Of a stretch of DNA of 64,000 bases, positions 999-10,572 are shown one piece after another; positions within the stretch are counted from its first letter, which is position 1, and every line of letters starts with the position of its first letter. The DNA is from a virus (Duplodnaviria; Caudoviricetes): IMG/VR virus record IMGVR_UViG_3300038499_000016, positions 1-64,000 of that record; one strand, written 5' to 3'. A program made the translations under genes and the position numbers. The notes below the pieces were generated by a model that did no database searches, was not told where the DNA came from, and saw nothing but the letters and a program-made list of their open reading frames with translations.

Positions 999-3900
999 TT
1001 ATTTGAGTCCGAAATATACGGCAGTAAAATTTCGAGATAGTCCTGATTTGTTTTCTATGTAGTAATAACCTCCAGATACTCCGACATTTACATGAGCAGC
1101 AGTTCCTATTGCAGAACTAAAATATGTTGACACACCCATTTGTAACGTTGATGCGGTGCCATTAAAATTCCAACGTGCTGTACTTACTCCTGTCCAATTT
1201 AAAACAATAATTTCAATATAACCAACCAAAGCTGCTGTCGATAAACCTAAACCAGCAAAAATATTGTACGTTGCATCATTCCCTAACGTAAAATCAAACA
1301 TTCTCATTGTAGTGGAAGGCCCTGTAACAGATAAAGGGGCACTCCCAGAACTTACTACATCTAATGTTGCCGTAGGACTCGTACCTATACCAACAGCTCC
1401 TGTCGTTAATAGTACCATTTGAGAAGTTGATCCGGCTGCTCCTATATAACAAGTATGAGCGCTATAGGTGCCCATCCACCCTGTGCTGGACAAACTATTA
1501 GACATCATTCCAGTACGCACACCAGCAGCATCAACTATAGAATATGGAGCTCCTGAAGCTTCATAAACATGCATTTTAAACGACGGGCTAGTCCCAATAC
1601 CCACATTACCAGCAGAATCTATGCGCATCCGTTCAGTATTATTTGTCCCAAAATAAATAGGCTGTGCAGCTAAAGAATTTAAAGTCACTCCTCCAGATTG
1701 AGTATTCCAAATATACGTTCCATTACCATGTATCATTCCGCTTGATGGAAAGCCCGATCCAAACACTGATATTCCTCCAGTACCAAAACTTGCATCATTA
1801 CCCAACCTTAACGAAGATGCTGCCAGCGTACCAGCATTTGGATTGTATACTAAAATGGCACAATCACCATTAACATTTTCGTGGACATGAAATTTATATA
1901 CGGGACTGGCCGTCCCTATACCAACCTTACCTGTAGAATCTATCGTCATGCAAACAGCATTACTAGTTCCTAAATGTAAACTTCGAGGTTTATCATTAAA
2001 TATCACACTAGAATAAGCAGTGGATCCAGGGAGAATTGATGCGCCAATACTGCTTTCTTGCCCTATAAACAAATCGTTACCAGTATCGTTTATAAACACA
2101 GCATAACAGGCATTTGTAGCCGTCGTGGACTCAACCCGTACAATACCCGTAGTATTACGAATATCTAATGCAGCCCCAGGACTCGTAGTCCCGATACCAA
2201 CAAGACCCGCGGAATCTATTGTCATCTGGACCGAGCCACTGGTGGCCAATTGCATAGAATGGGCATCCTGCACGCCAATAATACCTGCGTACGCAGCCCC
2301 ATTCAAAAAATCTCCCCCAGTGCTTCTTTCACGTCCTACATACATCTGCCCAGCAGTATTATTGAATTGAATGTAAGTTGAATTTGTACCTGTAGAAGAT
2401 TCAACAAGTATAACGCCCCCAGGTGCACAAACATGCAAAGGAGTACTAGGCATCGTACCGATGCCCACAAGACCCGCGGAATCTATTGTCATCCGGATAG
2501 CACCATTGGTACCAAAATGCATGTTATATCCAGAAGCAACACTAATTACTCCAGAATATGCGCTCGTACCAGTAAGAATTTGACTCCCTACACTTGCTTC
2601 ATGGCCAACATAAAACGATCCACCAGAATTTACATAAGAAGCAAAACAAGAGTTCGTGCCCGTCGTAGATTCAGCACGAATAACACAAAGAGCACCACGA
2701 ACATCCAATGTATTTCCAGGACTGTTAGTTCCTATACCCACAAGACCCGCAGCAGAAATACGCATTCTCTCTGTGGTATTTGTACCAAATACAAGTGGAA
2801 TATTTGATTGTACTGACAAATAGCCATACCCTGCAGTCTCAATTCCTACGTCTACCGTTCCACTTGGATCTTGAAATCGAGCATACATAGAAGCAGCACT
2901 GGCAGTATACAGATGTATTGGTGATGCAGGATTCGTAGTCCCAATACCAACAAGACCCCCTGAGCCTATCGTCATATGAACAATATTGTTCGCACCCAAT
3001 CCAAGAGGAGCATTAGCCTCATTAATTAGATATCCCTGATTGGTGTTCGCCTGCTGAAGATAAACACCCAGCCCCGCTGATCCATCATCCCTCACCCGAA
3101 CAACAGGCTGATCACCATACGCATCTAATGTAGTCCCAGGATTCGTAGTTCCAATACCTACATAACCTGTAGAAGCGACCCTCACAGCCTCCGTCATGAC
3201 ACTACCACTGGTCGTGGTCTGTAAAGATAACGCAGACTGATGAGTAGTGTGATTCTGATTGATACACACAATCTGTGCGTTTACAGAAGAACTATCGGCA
3301 AACGTAACATCTTCAGTATTGTTCGTGGTTCCATTGGTGTTCTGAATAAGAATACGCGGTGAATGCCCCGCCGTCAGACCTGTATTAGCATCACCACTTC
3401 TCAGCCGAGCAGCATCAGCCGTAACCATCACAACATCTAACCCAGCAGTAGGATTCGTAGTCCCAATACCTATCCTGTCCGTTATCGTCCCCGGATACAT
3501 ATTCGGAGCAGTCCGGATCCAATAAGAAGACCCACCAACCGCCCCATCCACATACGACTTCACAGCATTCTGCGTAGACAAAATGTTATCAGAAGTACCC
3601 AAGGCCGTCGACGTCGATATCTCATTCACCCAACTACCCGTGTACAACCGCAACGACCCCTCCACATCCAACGTCGTCAACGGCTGCGTCGTACCTATAC
3701 CCACACTGCCCGTCGCATCAACCACCACCCGCTGAACCCCACCCGTCGCCAACTGTAACTGCGTAGCCTCGTAATTCCATATTTCCAAATTGTTCGCAGC
3801 ATCCAACCGCAATACCGCCCCATCCCCTGACCCTATCCCTGTCCCAGCATTCACAATCTGTATACCAGGAACATTACTCCCCGTAGAATTCACAACAAGC

Positions 3901-4247
3901 GTAGGACCCGTACCACTGTTATTCAACCCCACCACATAATCCGTACCAGCATCCGTCTTGTTCACAATAAACGCCGGCTGAGGATCACTCTGCTCAATCA
4001 TCAACTGATCGTAAACAACCATCTCAGCACTCAAAGCGTGGATTACAGCCGTACCATCCACCCTAAACCCACCACTCACCGTAGCATCCCCACCTATGTA
4101 CGCGCCTAGCCCTATAGATGCCGTCCCATCTACTACCATCGACCCCGTATTGTGAAGACCCGCGACTACATACGACGAATCCGACGGATCCAACTTCGTG
4201 TGATCTATCGCATTGTTCTCTACCCATTTCCGTGATACCTGAGACAT
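999..4247 (-). CDS. tail fibre/spike protein with GIGT repeats
   Basis: 1082 aa, Gly/Ser/Thr-rich; 10 repeats of the ..RMxIDxxGxVGIGTxxP..LxV type; GGAG RBS; no S74 chaperone domain seen. Confidence 0.85.
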   Translation of the reverse strand: MSQVSRKWVENNAIDHTKLDPSDSSYVVAGLHNTGSMVVDGTASIGLGAYIGGDATVSGGFRVDGTAVIHALSAEMVVYDQLMIEQSDPQPAFIVNKTDAGTDYVVGLNNSGTGPTLVVNSTGSNVPGIQIVNAGTGIGSGDGAVLRLDAANNLEIWNYEATQLQLATGGVQRVVVDATGSVGIGTTQPLTTLDVEGSLRLYTGSWVNEISTSTALGTSDNILSTQNAVKSYVDGAVGGSSYWIRTAPNMYPGTITDRIGIGTTNPTAGLDVVMVTADAARLRSGDANTGLTAGHSPRILIQNTNGTTNNTEDVTFADSSSVNAQIVCINQNHTTHQSALSLQTTTSGSVMTEAVRVASTGYVGIGTTNPGTTLDAYGDQPVVRVRDDGSAGLGVYLQQANTNQGYLINEANAPLGLGANNIVHMTIGSGGLVGIGTTNPASPIHLYTASAASMYARFQDPSGTVDVGIETAGYGYLSVQSNIPLVFGTNTTERMRISAAGLVGIGTNSPGNTLDVRGALCVIRAESTTGTNSCFASYVNSGGSFYVGHEASVGSQILTGTSAYSGVISVASGYNMHFGTNGAIRMTIDSAGLVGIGTMPSTPLHVCAPGGVILVESSTGTNSTYIQFNNTAGQMYVGRERSTGGDFLNGAAYAGIIGVQDAHSMQLATSGSVQMTIDSAGLVGIGTTSPGAALDIRNTTGIVRVESTTATNACYAVFINDTGNDLFIGQESSIGASILPGSTAYSSVIFNDKPRSLHLGTSNAVCMTIDSTGKVGIGTASPVYKFHVHENVNGDCAILVYNPNAGTLAASSLRLGNDASFGTGGISVFGSGFPSSGMIHGNGTYIWNTQSGGVTLNSLAAQPIYFGTNNTERMRIDSAGNVGIGTSPSFKMHVYEASGAPYSIVDAAGVRTGMMSNSLSSTGWMGTYSAHTCYIGAAGSTSQMVLLTTGAVGIGTSPTATLDVVSSGSAPLSVTGPSTTMRMFDFTLGNDATYNIFAGLGLSTAALVGYIEIIVLNWTGVSTARWNFNGTASTLQMGVSTYFSSAIGTAAHVNVGVSGGYYYIENKSGLSRNFTAVYFGLK
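2200..2493. repeat. 27 nt exact direct repeat between adjacent tail-fibre modules
   Basis: acaagacccgcggaatctattgtcatc at 2200-2226 and 2467-2493. Confidence 0.8.
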
Positions 4248-4259
4248 CTAAGTATCTCC

Positions 4260-4505
4260 TTATGAACGGTCGTAAATAATCCTGATCTTGGAACTGGCAT
4301 CAAGCATCGAATACAATCCGTATGACCCACTATCCCACTTCACATTAGTCCCATCCACGTAAAAATCCCCAGTCAATGCCTGCGAAGTACCACCAATAAT
4401 GTCCATGGCCACATTACTACTGACCAATGGCGTACCCGATAACGCAACATACCGGTTAGAACTGTCCGTGGTCGACAAAACTATGTAGTCTACCTGAAAA
4501 GCCAT
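4260..4505 (-). CDS. small putative virion structural protein
   Basis: ATG 4505 with AAGGAG RBS; Ser/Thr/Gly-rich beta-type sequence; first gene of the tail fibre operon. Confidence 0.7.
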   Translation of the reverse strand: MAFQVDYIVLSTTDSSNRYVALSGTPLVSSNVAMDIIGGTSQALTGDFYVDGTNVKWDSGSYGLYSMLDASSKIRIIYDRS

Positions 4506-4560
4506 AATCACAAGCTCCTTGGAAATACATTTTCCCCGGAAGTATCAGTACCTACGCTAT

Positions 4561-4573
4561 ATTAAGAGATTAT
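4561..4573 (-). promoter_or_regulatory. phage promoter-like motif ATAATCTCTTAAT
   Basis: copy of the recurring intergenic motif, oriented toward the tail fibre operon. Confidence 0.7.
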
Positions 4574-4589
4574 CGAAAGGACACCACCC

Positions 4590-5120
4590 ATGTTCCAAAT
4601 CCCCGACAACTACCCCTCCGGCCTCAATACCCTCGAACTAGAATACCCATGGCTCACCCCAGGAGCCATATTCTACCTCGACCGAACCATCAATAAATCC
4701 CACTCAGTACTGGAATTCGGATGCGGTGGATCTACAATGTTCTTCGCCCGTAGAACCCTCTCCGTCTCCAGCTTCGAAACAAACCCCCAATGGTACCAAA
4801 AAGTATCAGAAACCATCACCCACCGAAACCTTACCAACGTATCCCTTACCCACATAACATCACTCCCCACCCTACAGGACTCCTACGACATCATCCTCAT
4901 AGACTGCGAACCCGCCCAACTCAATCGTATCCGTGCCGCCATACACGCCCTACCACACCTCAAAGACCGAGGCATCTTCATAGTCGATAACTATGCCGCA
5001 GACTTCTGCACAGGCATCCAAGACCTATTCCCAGGCCCCTGGGGTAACCCATGGCAATACCTCACCTTCGATGACCCCGCCTGGGCAGGAAGAGGAACAA
5101 GAATATTTCATAGAAGATGA
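4590..5120 (+). CDS. class I SAM-dependent methyltransferase
   Basis: VLEFGCGGST motif I, DIILID, GIFIVDN. Confidence 0.8.
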   Translation: MFQIPDNYPSGLNTLELEYPWLTPGAIFYLDRTINKSHSVLEFGCGGSTMFFARRTLSVSSFETNPQWYQKVSETITHRNLTNVSLTHITSLPTLQDSYDIILIDCEPAQLNRIRAAIHALPHLKDRGIFIVDNYAADFCTGIQDLFPGPWGNPWQYLTFDDPAWAGRGTRIFHRR

Positions 5121-5187
5121 GAAATGGTGTATATTATATATAATAAAGTCTTAGCCAGGCACCATAAACGCCTAGAGGATATACCCA

Positions 5188-8082
5188 ATGTCAGATCGAT
5201 GGACCCCCCAAGAAGATACCACACTCAAAGATATCTATCGAACCAGCACTAAGAAGGACATCCTAGAACGCCTACAAAAGCCCTGGATGACCATCCGCAG
5301 ACGCGCCGTACGACTAGACCTACACCGAGACACCGCCCTCATAGACGAAGACAGAAAACTTAGATTCGGACCCAGATCCGATGCCTGGACCCCCGAAGAA
5401 GATACCATCCTACGGGACATCTACCCCCATAACACCAAAGAGACCATCCTGTCCAAAATTGATAGGTCCTGGGGTGCCATCCATATCCACGCCCAGTTCA
5501 TGGATCTCCACAGAGACCGAGAAATCGTAGTCCGAGAAATGATCTCCGGCGGGAAAACCGTTACCCAACGAGAAGACTTCTGGTCCGAAGAAGAAAATGA
5601 CATCCTCCGCAAAAGCTACCCGGTAGGGTCCAAAGAAGACATCACCACCCAATTACCCAAAAGAACCTGGAAATCCATCAGAGAACACGCAATACGCTGT
5701 GACCTCATAAGAAACAACGACCAAATACAACAAGAACGCATCGCAAAACAAAAAGAAACCATGCTGAAGAACTATGGCGTGGAATACTCTACCCAACTCT
5801 CCAGCATGCAGGAAAAGAGCCGGCAAACCAACCTGGACCGCCGCGGTGTAACCTACCCCACCCAGTCCGAGTCCGTAAAAGAAAAGGTCAAAGAGACCGT
5901 CAGAGCTAAGTATGGCGTCGATAACGTCTTCCAAGCACCAGAAATCAAACTAAAAGCCATACAGACAAGTCTCTTCGAGTTCGGGGTAGAACACCCAACC
6001 CAGAGCCCCGAAATACAGGCCAAGACCCAGGCCACTAATCAAGAACGATATGGTGTGGACAACACATTCCAACTACAGGATAGGGTGAAGGCAGGGATGC
6101 TTGAGAAATATGGGGTAGAGCATCCCCAACAGCACCCAGATATTAGAGAAAAAACTCAAAAAACAAATCTTCAGCGATATGGTACACCCACTCCTAGCCA
6201 GAATCCTCAAGTACGGGAAAAATTAATAGCAATACTGAATACACCGGAAGTAAAAGAAAAGAAATACCATACACTCGTACATAGGGGATCTTTAAAAGTA
6301 TCTTCTGAAGAAACGGCCTTATTTGAGTATCTGAAACAGATAGATCCAGAAACAGAGACTCAAAAACTTCATCCAATAACCCGTTCAGTCATAGACTTCT
6401 ATCTTCCAAAATACGACTTGTGGGCCCAATATGACGGGTCCTATTGGCATAATGAGGGAAAATCTGGGGATGGACCACAGGCAGAAAGCATCAAGCAAAT
6501 AGTAGAGCGTGATAAGATGCAGAATGAGATGATCCCAAATCTCATTCGATTCAAATCTGATGAAGTCACAACAGCCATTAAATCCAACACGATCGTTCCT
6601 TTCCTACAAAACTGCATAGATATCCGACTCAAAGAAATTCCCGCGGCCTACAGCTATCAGTACGCCAAGAAGTTGGAGCACTACGGAGCCGACATTGCCA
6701 CACTGCCCTTCAATCCAGAATCGCTCTCAGCTTCTGATTTTGACCTACTGAAAGAAAACTTCACCCCAGAAATCACAGAGTTCATAGAGAAGTATGAATG
6801 GCTAGGTACAATAGGAGTAAGTCCAAAATGGTGTTTTACTGCCCGCTATAAAGGCTTTTTGGGTGGGGTAGTTCTCATAAATGAGCCTACTTCATACTCC
6901 AAAATACTGGGCGAAGATACCCCTACATACGAAGCATTGATTCAACGAGGAGCAACGGTATCCTGGGCTCCAAAAAATCTTGGTAGCAGACTTATCATGT
7001 TTGCCTGTAAATGGGTAGTTCAGAATACAACTAAACGAGCTTTTGTAGGATACTCAGACATAAGCGCCAATGAACGAGGCATCATCTATCAAGCCTGTGG
7101 TTTTGATTATCTCGGAGACAAATTCGGAAATGATGCACTTTATAAGCACCCCTATTTCGGAAAAGTCTTTTCCAGTCAGAGTCTATCCCGGACATCAGTG
7201 TTCAAAAAATGGTGTCGAGAGAATAACATTCAGACGAAACCAACATGGTTCAAGGAAAACGGATTCAAAAATCTATCTGAAATTCCTGAAGATATAAGGG
7301 TCGCCTGGCAGTCGTGGAAGAAAAAGATTATCTCTGAATCAGAAAAGATATGCATCAGAAAAAAGCGGAAATATGTTCTTATTTTGGGCAAGAATAAAAG
7401 AGAAAAAAAGATCCTAATCAGTAAGAAGACCTACGAACATCTGCCCTATCCAAAAGAAACCATGATTGCGGCCCCTTCTCTTGGTCATGGAAAAACTACC
7501 AGTAGAGGAAGTGGAGTAAAGATCCAATTCCTGAAAGATAATTACGACAAGATGAGTCGAGATGAACTTGCGGAACAACTTGGGGAAAACCGAAGATGGA
7601 TAAAACGACGATTACAGAATCTTTTTGATAGTGGGGCTTTAATTCCTCACAGACCTCAGCCAGCTAAAGAAGATATGCTTTCCGAGGATAAATGGACGGA
7701 TCTTATTAAAGCTCGGGCCTTTGAACTGAGAAGGAAGTACTTAAAAACACTGAAAGAAGTATCAGAGGCTTTGAACAAAGAATTCAATTTCAAAATAGAA
7801 GCCGGATCACTTCATCTATGGCTGCACCGTCTTGGATGTCCCGCCCTCACAAAACAGGAATGGCTTAAGGAATATTTTCCGGCAGAAGAAGCTACGAAAC
7901 TTGTGCAGCAAAAATACCGCATCATTGACATATCAAAACATCTACAAACTCAGTACGGAATCCGTTTCTCAGAAGATCTGATAGGACTTCATCTATCAGC
8001 TATCGGAGTATCTACCGCTAAAAAACTCACTAAATCTGAGAAATCTCCTAACGCTGTCCAGGGTTTGTTTCCTCTGGAATAG
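5188..8082 (+). CDS. multidomain DNA-binding/endonuclease-like protein with Mom-like GNAT domain
   Basis: N-terminal WTPEED/WSEEE Myb-like repeats; ~6 YGVxxPxQ repeats; IDFYLP..QYDGSYWH Vsr/DUF559-like core; GSRLI..YSD...E.GIIYQACGF Mom-like segment; C-terminal HTH-like helices. Confidence 0.65.
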   Translation: MSDRWTPQEDTTLKDIYRTSTKKDILERLQKPWMTIRRRAVRLDLHRDTALIDEDRKLRFGPRSDAWTPEEDTILRDIYPHNTKETILSKIDRSWGAIHIHAQFMDLHRDREIVVREMISGGKTVTQREDFWSEEENDILRKSYPVGSKEDITTQLPKRTWKSIREHAIRCDLIRNNDQIQQERIAKQKETMLKNYGVEYSTQLSSMQEKSRQTNLDRRGVTYPTQSESVKEKVKETVRAKYGVDNVFQAPEIKLKAIQTSLFEFGVEHPTQSPEIQAKTQATNQERYGVDNTFQLQDRVKAGMLEKYGVEHPQQHPDIREKTQKTNLQRYGTPTPSQNPQVREKLIAILNTPEVKEKKYHTLVHRGSLKVSSEETALFEYLKQIDPETETQKLHPITRSVIDFYLPKYDLWAQYDGSYWHNEGKSGDGPQAESIKQIVERDKMQNEMIPNLIRFKSDEVTTAIKSNTIVPFLQNCIDIRLKEIPAAYSYQYAKKLEHYGADIATLPFNPESLSASDFDLLKENFTPEITEFIEKYEWLGTIGVSPKWCFTARYKGFLGGVVLINEPTSYSKILGEDTPTYEALIQRGATVSWAPKNLGSRLIMFACKWVVQNTTKRAFVGYSDISANERGIIYQACGFDYLGDKFGNDALYKHPYFGKVFSSQSLSRTSVFKKWCRENNIQTKPTWFKENGFKNLSEIPEDIRVAWQSWKKKIISESEKICIRKKRKYVLILGKNKREKKILISKKTYEHLPYPKETMIAAPSLGHGKTTSRGSGVKIQFLKDNYDKMSRDELAEQLGENRRWIKRRLQNLFDSGALIPHRPQPAKEDMLSEDKWTDLIKARAFELRRKYLKTLKEVSEALNKEFNFKIEAGSLHLWLHRLGCPALTKQEWLKEYFPAEEATKLVQQKYRIIDISKHLQTQYGIRFSEDLIGLHLSAIGVSTAKKLTKSEKSPNAVQGLFPLE

Positions 8083-8192: not shown

Positions 8193-9752
8193 CTATACTG
8201 ACATTGGACGAGACGGTTCAATCCAGTTCCTTCTACTTTGTACACCTGGTCTATTCAAAGGTCCAAGGGCCGAAGTGATACCAATCCCGTATCTCATTTG
8301 TCTAAGTCCTTTAATAATCTTTATGGAGCGCTTAGCCGCTTCCACGAGCTTATCGTACTCGGCAATGTACTCGTCCTTCATTGATTGATACTTAGAGGAC
8401 TTCTCTATGTCAAGAGACACGCCGGATATCGAATATGTATTATGAACTAATATTCCAGAATCTGTTACGGCATTCTCTGTATCAGGAACAGACACATCGT
8501 AAGTATTCTGGCATTGATCCTGCTCTACTACACCCATAACTTTTACCGGACCAAAATTCTGATCTGGAAGGCCCACAACAAGATCTCCAAATTTTAAGCT
8601 ATCCGTTCGTATCGGTTCTTTATTGGGCCATCCAAATAAACTATGATCTTCCGTTACCACCACAGATCCAGTGTCAGTGATAATTTTAAACATTCTCTTA
8701 TGTGGAGTATTGTGCCTTAGAACATCAGCTAAGGGTCTCCATACAGGTTTGTCATCCTTATTTTCCATGGACTGTACTGTCAATTTCCCCTTCAGCATTG
8801 AGGAAATTATCTTCTGCCTGTTTACCTCTCTGCGCTTTTCCTGCAAAGTTCTAATGCATTCTATACCTGCCTTAGGATCTTGCTTTAATTCATGTTCCTT
8901 AATCCTGATTATCACCCATCCTCGATTTCTTAAAAACGATGTCTTCCTTTTATCAATATGCTTTATTCTATCTTCCCCTTGAAAACCACAGGATAAGCAT
9001 CCGTGCCAGTAACAACCATCAATTTCAATCGCAATCTTGGCCAAAGGATCCGCCTCATCTAACGAATAAGGGCCATAGGCATATTCTGATATAAACCCTG
9101 TAAGGCCTGCCTCAAGCATACGAGTCTTGTACCCTATATGCAATTTGCTTTGTTTTTCTAGAAATTTTCTAGCATTCTGAGCAGACGCTTTCAATACTTC
9201 GATATTCTCCAAAGCATAATTCTTCATTTTAGCCCTGAATTTAGGGTCACTCCACATTTTTTTACTCTGGACACTGTGTAACAATCTGACTTCAGGACGA
9301 TTATTAACTTCCCGAGATTTTTCAGACTTTCTTCTCTTAAACTCAGGATCTGCATTCATTTCCCGACTCTTCTGCCCTATAATTTTTCGGGTCTCCTCAC
9401 CAACAGAAGTCTTAAATCTTTCTATAAGTTTTCTAGACTGAGCCACTTTTTGTTCTTCCGTTTTTTGCTTTCTAGCCATATATAACGAACTATATATAGG
9501 GCTGAATCCAGAAATATTACAGCACGCATTGTGCTTCTCCGTCACGCAAGCCATCCTCTTCCCACACTTAGGGCACGAAACATAATGAACGCCCTCTTCC
9601 AACATTCCAAAAACAGAATCATCTATAAATATCCGCTTCTTAATACTCCGAGACTCAACCTTAAATTCAAGAGCACCTTCCGCACACAGAGCATCAATAA
9701 GCTGTGGTTCTATATTGTATTTCTTACAGAACTGCCTCTTTGAGATTCTCAT
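8193..9752 (-). CDS. Vsr/DUF559-like endonuclease + C-terminal split-intein fragment + 81 aa C-extein of a virion (adaptor-like) protein
   Basis: CPKC zinc finger; EIDGCYWH...GWVIIRIKE nuclease; intein block B TEDH; blocks F/G TYDVSV...GILVHN|T; own AGGAG RBS 7 nt upstream of the ATG. Confidence 0.85.
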   Translation of the reverse strand: MRISKRQFCKKYNIEPQLIDALCAEGALEFKVESRSIKKRIFIDDSVFGMLEEGVHYVSCPKCGKRMACVTEKHNACCNISGFSPIYSSLYMARKQKTEEQKVAQSRKLIERFKTSVGEETRKIIGQKSREMNADPEFKRRKSEKSREVNNRPEVRLLHSVQSKKMWSDPKFRAKMKNYALENIEVLKASAQNARKFLEKQSKLHIGYKTRMLEAGLTGFISEYAYGPYSLDEADPLAKIAIEIDGCYWHGCLSCGFQGEDRIKHIDKRKTSFLRNRGWVIIRIKEHELKQDPKAGIECIRTLQEKRREVNRQKIISSMLKGKLTVQSMENKDDKPVWRPLADVLRHNTPHKRMFKIITDTGSVVVTEDHSLFGWPNKEPIRTDSLKFGDLVVGLPDQNFGPVKVMGVVEQDQCQNTYDVSVPDTENAVTDSGILVHNTYSISGVSLDIEKSSKYQSMKDEYIAEYDKLVEAAKRSIKIIKGLRQMRYGIGITSALGPLNRPGVQSRRNWIEPSRPMSV

Positions 9753-9912
9753 TTTTTAACTCCTGTATCGATTCAATAGCATCTTTTTTGGCCTGTCGGG
9801 TAATCTCTTCTAGCTTATCCCCATACATCATGTTGAATAGTTCTCGTACTGTAACGGAGAACTCTTCCCCGTGTTCATCCTTCACAGTAAACATTTCATT
9901 TCCATCTAGACT
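8439..9912 (-). mobile_element. split intein with associated endonuclease
   Basis: Ser1 codon at 9912-9910, terminal Asn at 8441-8439, Thr+1 at 8438; the blocks lie in two reading frames. Confidence 0.8.
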
Positions 9913-10572
9913 AAACTCATCGGCGATCCAGTTCATAGCAATTGCAAAACAGGCAAATGCCGCGGCCCTGATAATGACTGTGGTTCTCCATCGTCTCTCA
10001 CTCCCCCATAGTGCCGTAAAATCAATGCCTGTTGTAGGGGGCCGGGAATTGAAATCATCCACGGCCATGTACAGGTACTCGAGCAGCTCCTCATCTTCCC
10101 AAATGAATCCGAATACCTGAGTCTGACCTTGTACAAATTTAGAAGACTCAGGTTGACGAAAGTGATAATTCCTGTCGGGATTATTGTCCCTTAGCATTAT
10201 TCGTAAACTATATAGCAGCTTATCAAGGTTCACATCTCCCGTGAAGCTGACGATCGTAGCATCGCCAACTACATTGAACTCCTGGACGGACTGATAGACG
10301 GGGTCCGCGGCCATTTCCTGGATGGTCCAGCGTATGCGCCAGTCACCGATATTACCATCGGCTGCTATTACGACTTCGGCGTAATACTTGCCCAGGGAGA
10401 TATGGACTGGGGTATTGACTGGGGATCCCATAAGGATTTCCACGCCTGTAGTAGCATCATAGACAGCGTATTCCAGGCGGAATGGGTCTATGAGGAGACC
10501 GCCGGAATCACGTACGGTGATTTGGAGGTCATTGGGACCTGTTGTTGAGCCGCGTTTGAATGCTACCGCCAT
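9724..10572 (-). CDS. 220 aa N-extein of a virion (probable head-tail adaptor) protein + 62 aa N-terminal intein fragment
   Basis: ...NWIADEF|SLDGNEMFTVKD...VTVRELF resembles intein block A; the ORF stops before block B. Confidence 0.75.
   Translation of the reverse strand: MAVAFKRGSTTGPNDLQITVRDSGGLLIDPFRLEYAVYDATTGVEILMGSPVNTPVHISLGKYYAEVVIAADGNIGDWRIRWTIQEMAADPVYQSVQEFNVVGDATIVSFTGDVNLDKLLYSLRIMLRDNNPDRNYHFRQPESSKFVQGQTQVFGFIWEDEELLEYLYMAVDDFNSRPPTTGIDFTALWGSERRWRTTVIIRAAAFACFAIAMNWIADEFSLDGNEMFTVKDEHGEEFSVTVRELFNMMYGDKLEEITRQAKKDAIESIQELKNENLKEAVL

Follow-up and report, generated by a model that had tools for sequence, protein, structure and literature searches.

Two overlapping open reading frames (ORFs) on the minus strand of a tailed-phage genome fragment raise the question of whether an intein has been naturally broken near its N terminus, with a homing endonuclease fused to its C-terminal half, or whether the two frames are a single gene. 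The locus lies in IMG/VR record IMGVR_UViG_3300038499_000016 (Duplodnaviria; Caudoviricetes), of which positions 1 to 64,000 were analyzed; this 64,000-nucleotide (nt) stretch is the window to which all coordinates refer. The record is a 108.7-kb fragment, estimated to be 23% complete, in which each ORF is present once. Judged from its sequence, the feature is very probably a naturally split class 1 intein with Ser1 and Thr+1 nucleophiles, situated in a probable neck gene of a huge phage.

Gene organization

ORF1 (9724-10572, 282 amino acids [aa]) encodes a 220-aa N-extein, ending in ...NWIADEF, followed by 62 further residues beginning with SLDGNE. These residues form the N-terminal intein fragment (IntN), which contains block A only. 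ORF2 (8193-9752, 519 aa) encodes a Vsr-like/EDxHD nuclease, a linker helix, the C-terminal intein fragment (IntC) with blocks B, F, and G, and an 81-aa C-extein. The two ORFs overlap by 29 nt, ORF2 being in the +1 frame relative to ORF1; their stop codons are at 9724-9726 (ORF1) and 8193-8195 (ORF2). The ORF2 ATG is located at 9752-9750, with its A forming part of an A6 run (9752-9757), and is preceded at a spacing of 7 nt by an AGGAG Shine-Dalgarno sequence (9760..9764). Because a TAA lies in the ORF2 frame one codon 5' of this ATG, the ATG is the first possible start. An original prediction, made from the sequence alone, had described this arrangement, including the ribosome-binding site and the 62-aa IntN with a lone block A, and it was found as described.

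The split is conserved

Homologues of ORF1 fall into three length classes. Proteins of about 300 aa are intein-less and read ...ADEF-[S/T/D]-YSISGVSL..., those of 467 to 494 aa contain a contiguous mini-intein at the same site without a nuclease, and those of 272 to 285 aa are of the split type. Approximately 35 proteins of the last class, with about 70% identity to ORF1, terminate at the same point within the intein as ORF1 does. On the other side of the break, approximately 55 clusters of ORF2 homologues (467 to 549 aa; 88 to 99% query coverage, 45 to 62% identity) contain nuclease, IntC, and C-extein in one frame.

At the DNA level, the layout of relatives was taken from metagenome loci, 15 of which are of the fused type and have the same two-ORF organization as the window. 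ORF2 is at +1 relative to ORF1 in all 15, and the commonest overlap is 14 nt. Most of them have an AAGGAG/AGGAG-type motif 7 to 8 nt before the ATG, encoded by Lys-Glu codons of the IntN tail, and the ORF1 stop is formed by the conserved Ser-Lys codons of the nuclease N terminus. An in-frame maxi-intein of about 790 aa was found neither among the ORF2 hits, which ranged from 285 to 909 aa, nor, in a search with no restriction on length, among the 150 best of 1.84 billion representatives. The two halves are therefore encoded by different ORFs with independent start and stop codons, and this arrangement is kept in relatives, as is the case for naturally split inteins. It is not a bifunctional maxi-intein with a nuclease in frame on both sides of one contiguous intein, since the N-terminal junction consists of a stop and a new start.

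A blastn search against a phage collection gave no match. A group I intron carrying the nuclease was considered and rejected, because the region has no Rfam match to a group I intron or other RNA family and offers no noncoding room. Promoter-like and terminator-like sites at the locus were not above chance.

Intein motifs and fold

The nucleophile at position 1 is Ser221 of ORF1, which places the intein in the Ser1 (oxyester) subgroup of class 1. IntC (ORF2 residues 323 to 438; 8439..8786), delimited by alignment and fold matches, contains the NX motif R346-H347, a block B (motif N3) T-x-x-H in the form T367-E-D-H370, block F, and block G with H437-N438; the intein ends with ...ILVHN and is followed by T439 as the +1 residue (TYSISGVSLD...). 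T367, H370, H347, H437, and N438 do not vary among 21 fused homologues, and conservation of R346 is 90% or higher. An Arg/Lys-His NX motif is a signature of Ser1 inteins (PMC10189870). Pfam recognizes an intein splicing domain at ORF2 residues 404 to 438 (E value, 4e-6). The break lies between motif N1 (block A) and motif N3 (block B), with IntN having block A only and ORF2 having NX, B, F, and G.

An AlphaFold model of ORF2 (mean predicted local distance difference test [pLDDT] score, 78) places HINT β-strands at residues 325 to 437. In structure comparisons, residues 323 to 438 of the model match the NpuDnaB intein with a Z score of 14.3 (root mean square deviation, 1.7; 110 residues aligned), and the HINT part matches VidaL with a Z score of 12.7 and the Cat atypical IntC chain with a Z score of 11.3. 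Foldseek paired IntC with the TFIIB Mvu mini-intein (5o9i; E value, 2.4e-8). The alignment of the ORF2 HINT part with solved inteins begins no earlier than about residue 23 to 49 of the latter, and by the model the first hairpin and short helix lacking in ORF2 are those encoded by the first ~29 residues of IntN (SLDGNE...RELFNMM; 9826..9912). This IntN core, which starts with Ser1 and comprises block A, the first β-hairpin, and a short HINT helix, was delimited as the part absent from the HINT of ORF2 in the structure alignment.

The position of the break and of the nuclease, both between blocks A and B, and the composition of blocks B and G and the 81-aa C-extein had been read correctly from the sequence. 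The suggestion of a short IntN was not upheld: natural atypical IntN fragments are 15 to 37 aa (AceL-TerL, GOS-TerL, VidaL, and PolB16 [PMC13014065]), and the IntN of the window is 62 aa as it stands, with only the ~29 aa of its core forming part of the HINT fold. IntN measures 51 to 62 aa in the remaining fused-type relatives of the alignment used for selection analysis.

Exteins and intein-less alleles

The N-extein (ORF1 residues 1 to 220; 9913..10572) consists of an Ig-like β-sandwich and the first helices of the host protein and is 93% identical to residues 1 to 220 of P0005, an intein-less homologue of 301 aa. The C-extein, 81 aa from Thr+1 (8196..8438), is 96% identical to P0005 residues 221 to 301. 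The junction in P0005 falls exactly at F220|T221, the two extein alignments have neither gap nor overlap, and their sum, 220 + 81 = 301 aa, equals the length of P0005, so that splicing would give a protein colinear with a natural allele. The original prediction had proposed looking for intein-less homologues with the joined exteins, and P0005 is such a homologue.

We surveyed 93 nonredundant loci with both junctions, of which 31 bear an intein (21 with a nuclease and 10 cis mini-inteins) and 62 do not. In each of the 31 intein-bearing alleles, position 1 is Ser, the intein ends with His-Asn, and the +1 residue is Ser (21 alleles) or Thr (10 alleles), in agreement with the proposed Ser1/Thr+1 chemistry without Cys. 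The junction residue of the 62 intein-less alleles is Asp in 44, Ser in 7, Asn in 6, Gly in 3, and Glu in 2, and never Thr. Since they have mainly Asp where intein-bearing alleles have Ser or Thr, most empty alleles lack the +1 nucleophile that an invading intein would need.

Nuclease module

The homing-endonuclease module occupies ORF2 residues 1 to 295 (8868..9752), as delimited by Pfam and PHROGs, alignment, the model, and fold matches. It comprises a winged helix-turn-helix (HTH) domain (residues 1 to 50; small and HTH-like in the model), a CCHC zinc ribbon (residues 57 to 78), helical repeats (residues 89 to 214) that appear NUMOD-like by eye, and a Vsr-like/EDxHD core (residues 216 to 295) that is modeled as an α/β nuclease fold at residues 221 to 291. 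Residues 1 to 55 resemble Xis/BldC-type HTH domains (Z score, ~7). The zinc site C-x2-C-x10-H-x3-C (C60, C63, H74, and C78), which the original prediction had called a zinc finger, is invariant in 21 homologues. The same prediction had named a Vsr/DUF559-like nuclease: Pfam hits to DUF559, MTES_1575, and Vsr at about residues 226 to 301 are all below the cutoffs, the PHROGs label for this region is endonuclease, and the fold matches of residues ~200 to 309 bear the assignment out, with Z scores of 11.4 to I-Bth0305I (3r3p_B; 97 of 98 residues), 11.4 to Escherichia coli Vsr (1cw0_A), and 11.8 to a DUF559-like protein (3hrl_A).

The motif DEADP...E-x-D-G-C-Y-W-H-G-C is invariant in the 21 homologues. 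Mapped by eye onto the published EDxHD motif, E243, D245, and H250 are invariant and D267 is conserved in at least 90%. Taken with this motif, the modeled order of domains, with DNA binding at the N terminus and the Vsr-like fold at the C terminus, is the architecture of the EDxHD family (PMC3239194). Downstream of the core, a basic linker helix (residues 296 to 322; 8787..8867) runs unbroken from the nuclease into IntC and is modeled at residues 297 to 320 as a single long, confident helix (pLDDT, ~90). The C-extein (residues 439 to 519) is modeled with low confidence. No Met before IntC is conserved in the 21 aligned homologues, and a conserved internal start for IntC was therefore rejected; the 519-aa protein is thus the likely IntC precursor.

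Charged helices at the break

The IntN tail (~33 aa; 9727..9825), whose codons contain the Shine-Dalgarno sequence and start of ORF2, is acidic and probably forms an amphipathic helix, as predicted from its sequence; its hydrophobic residues show heptad-like spacing by eye in aligned sequences. In the window, the tail has a net charge of -2 and the helix before IntC a net charge of +6. These signs, noted in the original prediction, recur in all 10 ORF1/ORF2 pairs compared, with IntN tails of -1 to -7 and helices leading into IntC of +1 to +6. Through these charges, the acidic tail may pair with the basic linker helix. Contiguous mini-intein relatives have an insert of ~50 aa at this point, which looks helical from sequence, and the nuclease lies within the region equivalent to this insert.

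Alternative explanations

The proposal that ORF1 and ORF2 are really one gene, either through a homopolymer error (A6 for A5) or through programmed +1 frameshifting that would yield a contiguous maxi-intein with an in-frame nuclease, draws on the facts that a one-base deletion in the A6 run would join the frames and that ORF2 is at +1 in every fused-type relative. The sequence at the ORF2 start varies among these relatives (GAAAATG, GAGAATG, and CTTGATG), however, and the +1 offset persists in those that lack the A run (GAGAATG and CTTGATG). An ORF2-frame stop directly precedes the ATG both in the window and in several relatives, and the codons before the ORF1 stop (ATC-TAA and CTG-TAA) are unable to re-pair in the +1 frame. 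Moreover, free-standing homologues (L099 and L100) begin with the same N-terminal sequence as ORF2, M-[KR]-x-S-K-R-x-F. With a variable A run, codons that cannot re-pair, and no ~790-aa protein in either database search, we reject both versions of this explanation, which we consider extremely unlikely. The single cis-intein and the +1 frameshift had been named in the original prediction as outcomes that would overturn it, and both failed; the natural split was sustained. That the halves no longer splice, and are held together noncovalently with the intein as a clasp or belong to a decaying pseudogene, is improbable. A bulky nuclease on IntC might block splicing, but Ser1, the block B T..H, the NX His, the terminal HN, and S/T+1 are intact in all 31 intein-bearing alleles, and the intein-less ones have mostly Asp at +1. 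All modules also appear to be under purifying selection: the ratio of nonsynonymous to synonymous substitution rates (dN/dS) is 0.11 to 0.33 in the nuclease N-terminal part, catalytic core, linker helix, IntC, IntN, and C-extein, values that are rough, as dS is saturated. Together with the conserved residues, these ratios speak for both the intein and the nuclease being active. It is likewise improbable that ORF2 gives rise to a separate IntC-C-extein protein by internal initiation or proteolysis, a reading that is compatible with trans-splicing, so that the probabilities of the readings need not sum to one. The window has Met319 (SSMLKGKL) just ahead of IntC, and the IntC genes of three-ORF relatives begin at the equivalent place, but Met319 is not conserved (ESFFSGSL and ASFLKGEL), has no Shine-Dalgarno sequence before it, and lies in a linker modeled as one continuous, confident helix.

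Several points, with the saturation of dS, weigh against a trans-splicing intein in a neck gene as the account of this locus. Trans-splicing is a prediction from sequence. The 438-aa nuclease-IntC fragment is far larger than any characterized atypical IntC, which could hinder docking. An intact second copy of the host gene may exist in the rest of the genome, the fragment being ~23% complete. The neck identity is suggested by fold scores that are middling (Z scores, 7.5 to 8.2), and the derived status of the fusion follows from parsimony alone, with an unrooted tree and a direction taken from the greater diversity of free-standing forms.

Proposed mechanism

Under the preferred reading of a naturally split intein, an EDxHD (Vsr-like) homing-endonuclease gene would have broken the intein at an N-proximal site between blocks A and B. 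The 5' end of the nuclease gene would supply the stop of the upstream fragment along with its own Shine-Dalgarno sequence and ATG, and its 3' end would have become fused in frame to IntC. Both ORFs would be carried on one transcript and yield the N-extein-IntN protein (282 aa) and the nuclease-helix-IntC-C-extein protein (519 aa). The IntN tail helix, which is acidic, would pair with the basic linker helix and the IntN hairpin would complete the HINT fold, whereupon Ser1, Thr+1, and Asn438 would perform trans-splicing to give the 301-aa protein ...NWIADEF-TYSISGVSLD.... The excised IntN and nuclease-IntC complex would then be a noncovalently rebuilt bifunctional intein, whose nuclease may cut intein-less or nuclease-less alleles during coinfection. 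Because the essential C-extein would be translated from the start codon of the nuclease, frameshift and nonsense mutations in the nuclease would be lethal to the phage.

Somewhat doubtful, in our judgment, is the wider idea that the nuclease-IntC fusion is a stable strategy, tying the essential C-extein to the start codon of the nuclease and shielding the latter from frameshift and nonsense decay, and that the acidic tail and basic helix act as an intrinsic zipper, in which case these N-proximally split, cysteine-free inteins would be a large natural family whose fragments bind each other with high affinity.

Evolution of the fusion

Distant relatives (L017, L020, L071, L099, L100, and L106 to L113) have a fractured gene of three ORFs in varying frames, encoding the N-extein with a 31- to 44-aa IntN, a free-standing nuclease of 289 to 336 aa, and an IntC-C-extein protein of 205 to 217 aa. 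In an unrooted nuclease tree, 22 of 23 fused nucleases form one clade (Shimodaira-Hasegawa-like approximate likelihood ratio test, 99).

The shorter members of the fused group have in-frame deletions and retain the nuclease N terminus and the IntC fusion. The DNA-binding part is missing from P0177 and P0181, the catalytic motif from P0184, and the catalytic domain from P0185, so that these proteins make up a series of decay of the fused nuclease through in-frame deletions only. As the essential C-extein would be translated from its start codon, the nuclease could presumably decay in no other way. P0182, a 336-aa protein with a truncated nuclease, IntC, and extein, is labeled at NCBI as from a "Candidatus Altiarchaeales archaeon" metagenome-assembled genome; a phage contig that was binned with an archaeon is its probable source.

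The host gene has a second intein site, after ...NPDRNY (P0024, P0039, P0119, L082, L083, L101, L102, and L105), where either cis mini-inteins or split inteins accompanied by a Vsr-like nuclease of their own are inserted; in the window this site is empty. For phage biology, one conserved, probable neck gene is thus a hotspot with at least two intein sites. In L082 (positions 1274-5129; also in L083), the host gene of ~300 aa is in three protein pieces over four ORFs: a 172-aa N-extein part with IntN-a, a free-standing Vsr-like nuclease of 336 aa, a 275-aa protein of IntC-a, middle extein, and IntN-b, and a 512-aa nuclease-IntC-b protein with the C-extein. A complete protein would in this case require two split inteins working in tandem.

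Comparison with known systems

Fractured genes were described in 2009 (PMC2677866): a split intein divides a phage gene, and a Vsr-like homing-endonuclease gene lies between the two halves, all on one strand. The window conforms to this description (Dassa 2009), having split intein halves that flank a homing-endonuclease coding region on the same strand. The terminase locus of that study, later named GOS-TerL, is broken after motif N1 (PMC2677866), as is the intein of the window, and every other natural break and all nuclease domains known in 2009 lie between N4 and C2 (PMC2677866). In the 2009 genes, however, the nuclease is free-standing, follows a noncoding spacer of 27 to 51 nt, and overlaps the start of IntC in another frame. 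The window has no spacer, with a 29-nt overlap and the Shine-Dalgarno sequence and ATG inside IntN codons, and its nuclease is in frame with IntC. Its host is probably a structural, neck-like protein, whereas theirs are DNA enzymes.

PolB16 was named as the only known natural cysteine-less atypically split intein in a 2026 paper (PMC13014065). Like the intein of the window, it is naturally split near the N terminus and has Ser1, a hydroxyl nucleophile at +1, and an Arg/Lys-His NX motif. It differs in having a 15-aa IntN and a 168-aa IntC without a nuclease domain, in contrast to an IntN of 62 aa (29 in the core and 33 in the helix) and an IntC with a nuclease of ~300 aa, and the two inteins are only distantly related (profile E value, ~1e-3). 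AceL-TerL, GOS-TerL, Cat-TerL, and VidaL are broken in the same region of the HINT fold, but their IntN fragments are 16 to 37 aa and they use catalytic Cys: AceL-TerL and Cat-TerL have Cys1/Cys+1 and GOS-TerL has Ser1/Cys+1 (PMC11766414), and VidaL is cysteine dependent (PMC13014065). No helical tail or fused nuclease is described for them in the literature surveyed, the coverage of which is incomplete.

Once assembled, the excised element of the window would resemble maxi-inteins such as PI-SceI, PI-PfuI, and PI-PkoII in combining a HINT domain and a homing endonuclease through a covalent link. The nucleases of maxi-inteins are, however, of the LAGLIDADG or HNH type, in frame on both sides, and between N4 and C2, whereas the EDxHD nuclease of the window lies between N1 and N3 with its N-terminal junction broken. 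The nuclease shares with I-Bth0305I of the EDxHD family (Taylor et al. 2011, PMC3239194; 3R3P) an N-terminal DNA-binding region, a C-terminal Vsr-like domain, and invariant E..D..H..D-type residues; I-Bth0305I is free-standing and encoded in a group I intron, and the sequence similarity is weak (E values, 0.1 to 0.4).

The original prediction had stressed rarity, and this claim stood in part. Fractured genes with Vsr-like nucleases, atypical splits, and one cysteine-less atypical split (PolB16) were already known separately. What is new here is a nuclease in frame with IntC together with charged helices flanking the break: neither a nuclease so fused with a broken N-terminal junction nor charged helical extensions were found in a literature survey of incomplete coverage, in which a full-text search for a Vsr-like nuclease fused to a split intein returned no paper. 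In the 2009 gene-breaking model, the nuclease ends up either free-standing or as an in-frame domain; the locus represents a conserved, half-integrated state between these two outcomes, and its nuclease domain occupies a position in the intein fold for which the 2009 paper (PMC2677866) knew none. For protein engineering, diverged Ser1/Ser-or-Thr+1 pairs number in the dozens among the relatives, which have them in fused and three-gene forms and in some cases in tandem on one protein, and these cysteine-free pairs are natural starting points for oxidation-tolerant ligation tools.

Host protein and neighborhood

The host protein belongs to no Pfam or PHROG family, and in the ESM Atlas it matches only viral "hypothetical protein" clusters, with a weak BppU_N lead. 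Foldseek returned no match at an E value of ≤1e-3; Ig-like domains dominate the list, and a portal-adaptor protein (8gtd_M) is matched at an E value of 2e-3. In the model of the intein-less allele (pLDDT, 71), helices follow an Ig-like sandwich at residues 1 to 102, and both intein sites lie in conserved loops of low confidence. Host residues 106 to 270 resemble neck and adaptor proteins, with Z scores of 8.2 for KHP30 (7wmp_m), 7.9 for Pa223 (9nwi_A), 7.7 for T4 gp13/gp14 (9lu4_D), 7.6 for the P1 connector, 7.6 for the A4 portal-tail protein, and 7.5 for the neck of phage 812. The host is thus probably a neck (head-to-tail adaptor) protein by its modeled fold, consistent with the structural role that had been proposed for it. 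Neighboring genes include a tail fiber gene and one for a virion structural protein.

Many related phages (L002, L006, L020, L024, L025, and others) have a weak paralogue of the N-terminal Ig-like domain of the host protein (26 to 35% identity) upstream of the gene, at a distance of ~450 to 1000 nt and in a few cases up to ~2.6 kb; none was detected in the window. Between the tail fiber gene and ORF2, the opposite strand contains an ORF of 964 aa (5188-8082, plus strand). It has homing-endonuclease-like repeats (DUF7487 E value, 6e-32; PHROG "homing endonuclease" E value, 1e-31), a Mom-like domain (E value, 1e-6; PHROG E value, 6e-15), and HTH motifs, and probably represents a further mobile nuclease gene, one whose cargo is unusual.

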